A stretch of DNA of 64,000 nt from Escherichia coli (lineage in GTDB: Bacteria; Pseudomonadota; Gammaproteobacteria; Enterobacterales; Enterobacteriaceae): NCBI RefSeq assembly GCF_016026235.1, contig NZ_CP065613.1; one strand, given 5' to 3'. Below are positions 43,018 through 62,336 of this stretch, one piece after another. Both the position numbers and the translations under genes were made by a program. The notes beneath the pieces were generated by a model. It searched no databases. It saw only the letters and a program-made list of their open reading frames with translations, and had not been told where the DNA came from. The stretch's first letter is position 1, and every line of letters starts with the position of its first letter.

Positions 43018-44301
43018 GAGTTCTCCTGCGTAATCAAAACTCATGATATCTGGAAACCCTCGCCAGTTACTAATCCACCAGAATAATCTTGAGTGCAAAC
43101 AGAGCTGCGACCACCACCACACACAGGTTCAGATCGCGCCAGCGCCCGGTGCACACTTTCATGATGCAGTACGACATAAAGCCGAGTGCAATCCCTTCGG
43201 TGATCGAGAAAGTAAAGGGCATCATCACCGTGGTAATAAACGCAGGCACCGATTCGGTAAAATCATCCCAGTTAACGCGCGCCAGGCTCGAAGTCATCAG
43301 CACGCCAACAAAGATTAACGCTCCAGCGGTTGCGTAAGGAGGAACCATCGCCACCAGCGGTGAGAAGAACATAACCAACAGGAACATAACGCCAACCACA
43401 ACCGCAGTCAGCCCCGTGCGGCCACCCACTGCCACGCCAGAAGTACTTTCAATATAGGCGGTAACAGACGAGGTGCCGATAAACGCACCCGCCACCGAAC
43501 TCACGCTATCAACATACAGCGCCTTATTCATATTGGGGAATTTACCGTTACTATCTATTAAGCCAGCTTTATCAGTCACACCAATTAATGTTCCTGATGA
43601 ATCAAATAGGTTGATCAGCATAAAGGAGAAAATGATACCGGCGAGTTCAAGTGTTAACGCGCCGCTCAAATCCACTTCACCAATGACGCCGCTAATATCA
43701 GGCGGAATGGAATAGACACCGCTAAAATGAACATCACCGAAAAATAATCCACAGCAAGACGTCACCACAATAGAAACCAGCACCGCGGCATGAAAATGAC
43801 GTGATGACAACACGGTTATAATAAAAAACCCTAAAATACCTAACAACACGCCGTGAGAACTTAAATCGCCAATCATCACCAGAGTGTCTTTATTGGCGAC
43901 AATAACGCCAGTATTTTTTAATCCCATTAAGGCGATAAATAATCCAATTCCGCTGGTGATACCAATACGTAAACTTAATGGAATGTTGGAGATCATCCAG
44001 TACCGGATACGAAACAGCGTGAGCAAAAATAGTCCAATTGCACCCCAGAATATTGCGCCCATCCCGGTCTGCCATGAGATCCCCATCGCCCCCACGACCA
44101 CGAAGGCAAAGAAGGCGTTCAGCCCCATTGCCGGAGCCAGCGCCACAGGTAAGTTAGCAAATATCCCCATCGCAATGCTGCCGATACCGGCAATCAAACA
44201 GGTGGTAACAAACACCACTTTCGGGTCCATTTGTGCCGCGCCGAGAATTTGCGGGTTCACAAAAACGATGTACACCATGGTTAAAAAAGTGGTCATCCCC
44301 T

Positions 44302-45589
44302 GAGGGATCCCCAGAAAATTTAGTAAACCATTATCATATTGGTATACCGTTGCTGTAGAACTTTCAGCCCTGCGTCAAGTGACAGTGTGTTTAGTATGAG
44401 TGGAGAATGTCGAATCACATTCTCCGCCAGTTTTAATAACGAGATGACTCGCCTGTGCTTCACTGTATTTGCCTGATATTTATGATGTATCCCTTTGTTT
44501 TCCAGGCTGAAACCGCTTAACCACATAATGATACTGGCTAATGTTGCGATCAGACTCAATACCGTGACCCGCCCGGATGAATGACTGGCACCAAACCGTA
44601 GTCCAAATCCCCAGCGAGGATTTTTTCATCCCTGAAATTTTGCTCAATTTGCATTCTACGGCTGTATAATTTCATTACCTGTTTTGGCGAGAACTCAGTA
44701 CTGTTTGTGAAAATAAACCATGGTGATTTCCCGGCAGTACGAGCTTTAGCCGTCACCGATGGTCTGGTTGCTCTTTCCTTCGAGCGTTTAAATCTACGAC
44801 CTTTAGACTTACTTTTATAAAGATAAAAATGCCCTTCATGTTGTGCATTTTTATCTCGACCCAGCAGGCCTTCATCTAAATAAATTGCTGTCGTTGATGC
44901 TTTTGTGCCTGAGTCCGACACCTTTTCCCAGCCATTACCAACATTGTAATAATGATTGCCCAGTACCCGGCAAATATAGGTCCAGCCACGGGAGCGGAGC
45001 TGTTGGAACCATCGCCCCTGAAAACCGGCATCTGTAATAACAATGACATCAGTCCCGGGGGAAAAGCACTCAGCAAGCGATTCCAGAAAACGCTCATGTA
45101 CATCTGCATTCGCTGTCTGTGATGATGGAACGACACAACTCATCAACGGTAAAGAACGCCCGTCACATGCCAGGCTTGCCCGCAAAAGCTGAAAACGAGA
45201 GGCATGATAAGCACTCCAGTCAATGAGTATCACAACACGAGACATTCCCCGCGTAATCTTTTGGGTAATTCGCTGAAAAATGGTGGAAACCTCATTTTGC
45301 AAATGTCGATTCCCCAACAGTCGATCCACCCGCTTTATTTTGTTTTTAACTGATGCCGTACCGGTTAAATGACGCCCGATACTGGTAAGTGTGAGGGAAG
45401 CGCCATTTATTACAGCATTAGTTGCGTCAATCAGTGATTTTTGACGGTAAAGATGCAAAGGGGCCAGTATGTTGTTAAGGAAATTTTGGCATAATGAACG
45501 TGCAGGCATAGTGGTGATCTCCTTGAAATTGTTAGCACAATCAATTAGATCACATCTCACTATGCCTGTCTTGTTTTCTGGGGATTCCT
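44302..45589 (-). mobile_element. IS4-family insertion sequence (IS10-like transposase), about 1.29 kb, with imperfect terminal inverted repeats and a 13-bp target site duplication
   Basis: Ends TGAGGGATCCCCAGAAAA (left) and, as reverse complement, GAGGAATCCCCAGAAAA (right); flanked by direct repeats AGTGGTCATCCCC at 44289-44301 and 45590-45602; encodes an IS10-like transposase. Confidence 0.8.
44320..45509 (-). pseudogene. IS4-family (IS10-like) transposase, reading frame broken by a frameshift in an A6 run
   Basis: MPARSLCQNFL...NKIKRVDRLLGNRHL...DAGF...YLYKSKSKGRRF...LYSRRMQIEQNFRDEK parallels IS10 transposase up to plus-strand 44621-44626 (TTTTTT). The homologous continuation ...NPRWGFGLRFGASHSS...HKYQANTVKHRRVISLL... 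is in another frame, ending at 44320. Confidence 0.7.
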
Positions 45590-45881
45590 CAGTGGTCATC
45601 CCCGCAATCAATTCTGTGCGGACGGTGGTCCCATGCTGAGGTAGTTTAAATAATCGCGAAAGCGTCCCTGATTCATTACTCACGTAATCGGTATTGTCAT
45701 TATTCATTTTTTTGTCCATTGGAGGAGATTTAATCCCTTGCTTTTGTAAAACAAATGACAACAACGGTTCAGTGATAATTATCACATTTCAATTGCACAT
45801 TAATGGATATTCTTTAATAATCTCGCGACGTTTCTTTATGATAAATAATAATCAAATTGATAAAATCAAAATGAGAAAAAT

Positions 45882-62170: not shown

Positions 62171-62336
62171 CTCATAGCCCTTATTTATGTTTATGTCCCG
62201 GACGCATGAATATAGGGAGAGGTAAAATGCGTCGGGTCAGGCAGTCAGATTCTTAAAATACAAACGTCGTATCCCTGAACGGATTGTTTTCTGTTAAGTT
62301 CAGGTTGTGAGCATAATTCGCTGGAGGGATATTAAA

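Follow-up and report, generated by a model that had tools for sequence, protein, structure and literature searches.

The IS4 family of insertion sequences is defined by the absence of a frameshift in its transposase, whose catalytic residues follow the spacing D(60-110)D(100-150)E, and members of its IS10 subgroup measure 1200-1350 bp, have 5′-CT ends and generate 9-bp direct repeats (PMC2266710, Table 1). ISEc60, the element treated here, is mentioned by name in only two papers of the literature searched and is the subject of neither. The window, by which we mean the whole 64,000-nucleotide stretch of Escherichia coli DNA that was analysed, contains one ISEc60 copy, at 44300-45592 on the minus strand, within adeQ. 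A megablast comparison with 5426 complete E. coli genomes found this element to be 99.2-99.6% identical to full-length copies annotated by PGAP as 'IS4-like element ISEc60 family transposase'. By ISfinder convention, elements carry the same IS name at roughly >95% nucleotide identity, and the window element is ISEc60 as judged by its near-identity to the PGAP-named copies. Its length is 1293 bp, against 1294 bp in the other full-length copies measured, with a boundary that is ambiguous by 1 nt; both ends begin CTGAGG, and the flanking duplication is 9 or 10 bp, as in the IS10 subgroup.

The transposase carries the residues expected of the family. A match to the Pfam domain DDE_Tnp_1 (E = 1.5e-20) and an alignment of 12 family sequences place the DDE triad at D97, D160, and E289, with spacings of 62 and 128 that fall within the IS4 ranges, and all three residues are invariant in that alignment. 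The Y-(2)-R-(3)-E-(6)-K signature is found at Y282, R285, E289, and K296 within YSRRMQIEQNFRDEK, is likewise invariant across the 12 sequences, and lies wholly upstream of the frameshift described below. Most of the best 120 protein-cluster representatives are 395-397 aa long, relatives down to about 50% identity are single ORFs of that same length, and intact ISEc60 copies are annotated as a single 396-aa ORF without a frameshift. An earlier note, made from the DNA letters, had called the element IS10-like and had held that IS4 transposases are normally a single ORF; the DDE and YREK residues, the CT ends, the size, and the 395-397-aa relatives all bear this out. A search of the PDB with the frame-restored protein returned nothing significant.

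In the window this single reading frame is broken. Frame A opens at an ATG at 45509, downstream of AAGGAG, and encodes transposase codons 1-296 on the minus strand (44622-45509), from M1 to K296 (44622-44624), with the native end ...MQIEQNFRDEK. The break falls at a run of six A on the minus strand (plus-strand T6, 44621-44626), where the plus strand reads ...GAGG A TTTTTT C ATCCC... and the minus strand GAT GAA AAA A|TC. If A6 is real, translation continues out of frame for 21 codons (ILAGDLDYGLVPVIHPGGSRY) and a stop (44556-44621, minus strand; stop codon 44556-44558), which yields a product of 317 aa with 296 native and 21 foreign residues. This tail is unmatched by any family member: against the best 120 representatives of protein clusters, the truncated product aligned over no more than its first 93%, which marks the remainder as foreign to the family. 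The missing part of the protein, codons 297-396 and the stop (NPRWGFGL...MIMVY), lies in frame B at 44320-44622 on the minus strand, where it reads NPRWGFGLRFGASHSS...HKYQANTVKHRR...MIMVY with a stop at 44320-44322; translation, the NF033591 match, and alignment conservation identify it as the conserved C-terminal 100 residues.

Insertion of one A into the run in silico restores a single protein of 396 aa. This protein scores 357.1 bits with the NCBIfam equivalog model NF033591 (IS4 family transposase), for which the cutoff is 152, in a match that spans positions 1-339 of the 340 in the model, and differs from the annotated intact ISEc60 transposase WP_001111632.1 (gene 1191 bp, 396 aa) only by G212D and P235S. 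The full-length model match and the near-identity to WP_001111632.1 indicate that the homology across the run is real and not due to chance, so the earlier note was right that it passes from frame A to frame B exactly at the A run. The substitution behind P235S lies 181 nt from the run, at 44807, where the plus strand has A and the consensus has G; the one behind G212D lies at 44875, with T in place of the consensus C. Residue 212 is Gly in all 11 other aligned family members and Asp in the window copy. An exact-sequence look-up of the restored 396-aa variant found none on record.

The length of the run is unusual among ISEc60 copies. In an alignment of seven sequences, which includes three copies flagged 'frameshifted' elsewhere and an 85%-identical relative, A6 occurs in the window copy only and all others have A7; ten further copies from two assemblies are A7 as well, which makes A7 the state of 16/16 other aligned or counted copies. 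With an 80-nt probe that has the run at its centre, 98 places were located in 29 complete E. coli records; the best of these are all 98.8% identical (equivalent to one gap), and 0/98 match the A6 80-mer exactly. Among GTDB species representatives, neither the A6 nor the A7 form of a 40-mer across the run had a match. The A7 tract encodes GAA-AAA-AAT (E295-K296-N297). Across the copies compared, these results show an ancestral run of A7, from which the window is one A short, and the window copy is best described as a one-base-deletion derivative of the single-ORF IS4 organisation. Other database copies with a 'frameshifted' flag likewise have their breaks at short runs or in A-rich tracts. The same A7-to-A6 change, at the identical position, was seen in an ISEc60-like copy on plasmids pRHB38-C24_4 and pRHB30-C10_5, from two strains of pig-farm E. 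coli. That copy is long dead, with 97% identity, a 17-bp deletion that removes the start codon, and 15 substitutions, whereas the window copy is otherwise nearly pristine; its contraction is probably genuine, since the identical decayed copy recurs in both records. CP091400.1, a noisy plasmid assembly from human E. coli, has the same A6 along with three further indels in one copy.

A natural two-ORF organisation was considered as a candidate and rejected, as ISEc60 copies and their relatives are single ORFs. Very little credence is given to a reading in which the two frames are joined on purpose, by programmed −1 ribosomal frameshifting or by transcriptional slippage, to provide a low, regulated level of full-length transposase, the way IS1, IS3 and certain further IS families do. 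As read from the sequence, a −1 slip of tRNA-Lys on A_AAA would give exactly the ancestral ...DEKNPRW..., and A_AAA is among the tetramers able to frameshift given a stimulator (PMC4066793). However, the zero frame GAU GAA AAA AUC offers the tetramer A_AAA only and no X_XXZ_ZZN heptamer, tetramers without a stimulator remain at background (0.147% vs. 0.112%), A_AA.A ranks lowest among the six active tetramers (PMC4066793), and the 81 nt that follow show no folding advantage over shuffled sequence (z = +0.41). Transcriptional slippage that is exploited needs runs of about 9 (PMC1088944), against 6 here and 7 in the intact copies. Every other copy, together with relatives to about 50% identity, is moreover a single ORF of 395-397 aa, in keeping with a family defined by the absence of a frameshift (PMC2266710). 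Programmed recoding is thus excluded in practice.

Assemblies that carry the same insertion narrow down when the base could have been lost. A look-up of a junction-specific AdeQ fragment led to the NCTC assembly GCA_900449985.1, which has the same adeQ::ISEc60 and, over the 21,227 bp of the comparison (window positions 33,070-54,295), is identical to the window save for an extra A in the run; its copy is A7 and has both of the copy-specific substitutions at 44807 and 44875. Look-ups outside this interval with GltS, the PTS EIIC protein, the 571-aa symporter and YicI returned other clone-mates and not the NCTC contig. In GCA_031665325.1 the same adeQ insertion is A7 with the consensus bases at 44807 and 44875, and outside the IS a single SNP and one IS1 insertion separate this assembly from the window in ~21 kb. 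The three assemblies form a nested series, from the consensus (GCA_031665325.1) through the addition of two substitutions (NCTC) to the addition of the frameshift (window). The presence of A7 at the same insertion in two clone-mate assemblies means that the frameshift is at most strain- or assembly-specific. The window is matched at 100% identity by the Illumina draft GCA_001907565.1 across 22,319 bp and by the clone-mate L047 across 11,726 bp, and five other relatives show SNPs only and no indels. From 22,035 to 62,180 of the window, the run length is the only private difference from the closest clone-mates, and with no other private difference over ~40 kb the branch available for a real mutation is very short. 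The clone drafts break inside the IS short of the run, with contig ends at 44357-44569 and 45406-45574, and so are uninformative on A6 versus A7.

The element is abundant in this lineage. Beyond the adeQ copy itself, the contig of a clone-mate with the same insertion contains at least 7 more intact copies of ISEc60. The close relative FDAARGOS_943, which is without the adeQ insertion and is 99.94% identical to the window at ~62171-62180, has ISEc60 at 32-38 places. At ~62171-62180, GCA_031665325.1 has an IS1 (encoding a 232-aa IS1 transposase) upstream of a 571-aa symporter gene that is absent in the window, and at this position FDAARGOS_943 is longer by ~770 bp; by sequence comparison, this is an IS polymorphism within the clone. 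Several ISEc60 copies (L034/L035, L002, L045) stand in direct tandem with only a shared 10-bp duplication between them. Two copies in GCA_031665325.1 (L038, L040) have non-matching flanks, which would imply recombination between copies and genome rearrangement in the lineage.

The absence of the 44807 and 44875 substitutions from GCA_031665325.1 makes change roughly 30 times more frequent inside the IS than in the flanks (1 SNP in ~21 kb), which suggests either gene conversion between copies or a homogenisation of the copies when that assembly was polished. Taken further, homogenisation of IS copies in polishing could have introduced A7 into the sibling assemblies in error, with A6 the true state throughout the clone, and GCA_031665325.1 does have the consensus at all three distinctive positions while its flanks differ by only one SNP and the IS1 in ~21 kb, a pattern that multi-mapped reads could produce in polishing. 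We consider this the least probable of all the readings weighed here: the NCTC assembly retains both copy-specific substitutions and yet has A7, so it was not homogenised, and the error would have to restore the ancestral frame exactly.

Two readings carry most of the weight. The comparisons establish the A7 ancestry of the run, the assembly-private nature of the change, and the location of the run in a multicopy element; on this basis we infer, with a probability of roughly 55%, that the frameshift is a consensus miscall in a multicopy repeat, a fault of the base call and not of the cell. Under this reading, the non-programmed contraction of the A7 tract (GAA-AAA-AAT, E295-K296-N297) to A6, seen only in the window assembly, would be a homopolymer-length miscall left in the consensus of the repeat, and the true adeQ element would be an intact 1294-bp ISEc60 with a 396-aa transposase. 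The miscall is favoured because A7 and a single 396-aa ORF are found in 16/16 other copies and A7 in two clone-mates, and because the sole discrepancy is a one-base homopolymer shortening inside an element that is multicopy in the lineage. It is also favoured because the truncated products are absent from the record: an exact look-up of the 317-aa product and of the 383-aa product of an adeQ fusion, described below, found none among 153 billion gene positions. The occurrence of the same A6 in the noisy CP091400.1 argues in the same direction. The discrepancy also belongs to the class of residual error reported after short-read polishing, where homopolymer-length errors are described as the most common, errors in repeats as often remaining, and short reads as aligning unreliably in repeats (PMC8812927).

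The other reading, a genuine and very recent replication-slippage deletion from A7 to A6 in this strain's adeQ copy, which would leave the copy non-autonomous, is a serious contender at somewhat below even odds. Set beside the Illumina drafts, the window is free of indels across 22 kb, and in the ~30 kb that were compared with other E. coli none of its conserved genes is broken; an assembly this clean is not generally error-prone, which counts against a miscall. So does the same contraction in the independent decayed copy on the two pig-farm plasmids, which suggests that the run may be a real mutational hotspot. The breakage of other 'frameshifted' copies at short runs or A-rich tracts also speaks for a mutation. 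The adeQ copy already had G212D, at a nearly invariant Gly, and P235S, both common to the NCTC assembly, and a change at this conserved Gly fits a copy drifting without constraint; the three assemblies moreover form a nested series to which the contraction adds one further step. Strong conservation of the C-terminal 100 aa extends to relatives at 52% identity, so that loss of this part would inactivate the protein. However, a slippage deletion has to be placed on a terminal branch that is otherwise without change over ~40 kb, the resulting allele at the adeQ locus is absent from every other assembly or gene call, and both the multicopy-repeat location and the direction of change are typical of consensus errors (PMC8812927). 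The earlier note had offered a decayed copy or a homopolymer error as its alternatives; the change is indeed a one-base homopolymer change and one of those two, and is now narrowed to an assembly-private event for which a miscall is the somewhat better supported cause and a mutation the next.

The insertion itself is simple and well preserved. The 19-nt terminal inverted repeats, CTGAGGRATCCCCAGAAAA, are intact at both ends: the left, transposase-proximal repeat, CTGAGGAATCCCCAGAAAA, lies at 45574-45592 on the minus strand and the right repeat, CTGAGGGATCCCCAGAAAA, at 44300-44318 on the plus strand, and neither differs from the corresponding end of any aligned copy. Direct repeat comparison and the empty adeQ site delimit two copies of the target-site duplication, TGGTCATCCC, at 44290-44299 and 45593-45602; owing to the 1-nt boundary ambiguity, the duplication is 9 or 10 bp, TGGTCATCC(C). 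Three metagenome or SRA assemblies (L008, L009, L011) have the empty adeQ site with a single copy of the duplicated sequence, and an uninterrupted adeQ with one such copy proves a simple insertion of ISEc60. These IS-free alleles have one C fewer at ~45619-45621 (GTGCGGA-GGTGG); they thus have a 5′ frameshift of their own and are called as the same 408-aa product as the adeQ 3′ fragment of the window. The adeQ::ISEc60 location is absent from all 5426 complete E. coli genomes searched by megablast.

ISEc60 is co-directional with adeQ on the minus strand. The adeQ 3′ fragment (43070-44299, minus strand) opens at an internal ATG that the junction has generated and is an ORF of 408 aa, with a match to Xan_ur_permease, and the 5′ fragment (45593-45707, minus strand) has its start codon at 45707 or 45695 and continues across the IS end in the reading frame of the transposase. 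From the adeQ start codon the frame runs across the inverted repeat and the leader into the transposase without a stop (44556-45707, minus strand), and forms an AdeQ′-transposase fusion ORF that is called at 462 aa in the NCTC assembly and would be 383 aa in the window. The ISEc60 insertion sites compared (window 44284-44299 / 45593-45608, L001-L006, and L033-L042) resemble a G+C-rich palindrome, GCGGGGA-N3-TCCCCGC, as exemplified by GGCGGGGATTTTCCCCGCC in L003, and all duplications start with G; only the left half of the palindrome is matched at the adeQ site (GCGGGGATGACCA). This suggests that ISEc60 selects hairpin- or REP-like sequences as targets, unlike the IS10 hotspot.

The transposase leader is predicted to fold into a strong hairpin (45503-45568, minus strand), with 11-nt arms CAGGCAUAGUG / CACUAUGCCUG and an inner stem, that pairs the Shine-Dalgarno sequence and the transposase AUG with a segment near the IS end and thus buries both. 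Its predicted energy is −38.5 kcal/mol (z = −5.5), and 0/200 shuffles fold as well. In IS10, fold-back inhibition works through a leader hairpin over the start codon that forms in read-in transcripts, and the ISEc60 hairpin is similar to it: it would form only in transcripts that read in from outside, and it may keep AdeQ′-transposase read-through from translation. An Rfam search at E ≤ 1 returned no family, including no RNA-OUT-type antisense RNA, and a promoter scan gave only weak 9-of-12 matches. A terminator-like hairpin, an 11-pair stem followed by a T-rich tail, lies at 44400-44427 on the plus strand, opposite the 3′ part of the transposase gene; from its sequence, it could stop transcription that enters the IS from the adeQ 3′ side.

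As assembled, the window copy has no intact transposase and so is not autonomous, a statement that holds only if the base call is correct. If A6 is real, the shift comes directly behind K296, with which the YREK signature ends, so that D97, D160, E289, and YREK are retained and residues 297-396 are lost. The lost segment includes the invariant residues R299, G301, G303-L304-R305, R314, W330, Y345-Q346-A347-N348, R367-H368, and others, and, as a lead only, is collinear with the C-terminal part of the IS10 transposase. Work on Tn5/Tn10, by Davies et al. in 2000 and by Kwon, Chalmers and Kleckner in 1995, reportedly found the transposase C-terminal regions to be needed for synaptic-complex formation. 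Given this analogy and the loss of a conserved C-terminus, the truncated protein should be inactive. The copy would then be non-autonomous, yet mobilisable by the transposase of other copies through its two intact ends, and such supply in trans is probably available, because the ends are intact and intact copies are present in the clone-mate (at least 7), with ISEc60 at 32-38 places in the relative.

The earlier note had further proposed that, if the break is real, nothing short of mobilisation of the element in trans could undo the adeQ disruption. This proposal is not supported: a transposase in trans is probably at hand, and its action would do little for adeQ. Genetic studies of Tn10/IS10 by Foster et al. 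in 1981 and Morisato et al. in 1983 are said to show that the target gene stays unrestored after cut-and-paste excision and that rare precise excision is independent of transposase; rare precise excision of IS10-type elements is host-mediated. Whether the transposase gene is whole or broken therefore matters little for adeQ. A more elaborate proposal, in which the A7 tract acts as a reversible contingency switch and the contracted product as a trans-dominant inhibitor that damps transposition among dozens of ISEc60 copies, is a long shot. That product would retain the N-terminal part with the catalytic DDE/YREK core and be without the conserved last 100 residues; were the proposal true, the recurrence of the contraction in the unrelated plasmid copy would reflect more than neutral decay.

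The biological weight of the frameshift is small, as one copy of a highly amplified IS is either miscalled by one base or freshly dead, with many intact copies in the lineage. For annotation, the gene should be labelled an ISEc60 transposase pseudogene (frameshifted), or be corrected after a check of the reads, and the window frameshift should not serve as evidence of ISEc60 decay in the genome or of an irreversible adeQ disruption. Single-base homopolymer differences in multicopy IS elements are the least trustworthy of the differences between otherwise identical assemblies.

Set against known systems, the adeQ element is a known IS, and what it presents is no new kind of feature and an ordinary one-base homopolymer discrepancy. 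The nearest counterpart is ISEc60 as annotated by PGAP on replicons of E. coli, E. albertii, and Shigella dysenteriae, which has the same inverted repeats, the same length but for one base, and a transposase that differs at 2/396 residues; the window copy is set apart by the missing A of A7, by the substitutions at 44807 and 44875, and by its adeQ location. The IS10R/Tn10 transposase is 36% identical to that of the window (E = 2e-74) and collinear over 1-369 across the frameshift, a comparison that is a lead only. The two elements have in common the CT ends, a length of ~1.3 kb, a duplication of the 9-bp class, and the YREK signature, and differ in target preference, which looks like a G+C-rich palindrome for ISEc60 and is the consensus NGCTNAGCN for IS10. 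With the programmed −1 frameshifting of IS1 and IS3, the locus shares an A-rich run at the junction of overlapping frames and a −1 slip that leads to a full-length protein; ISEc60 was rejected as an element of this type since it is without the conserved two ORFs, the in-frame heptamer, and the stimulatory structure, and as one of the transcriptional-slippage type since its run falls short of the A or T run of about 9 or more found there. The frameshift itself resembles the residual homopolymer errors of long-read or hybrid assemblies, with which it shares a one-base shortening in a multicopy IS that is the sole discrepancy between siblings over tens of kb.
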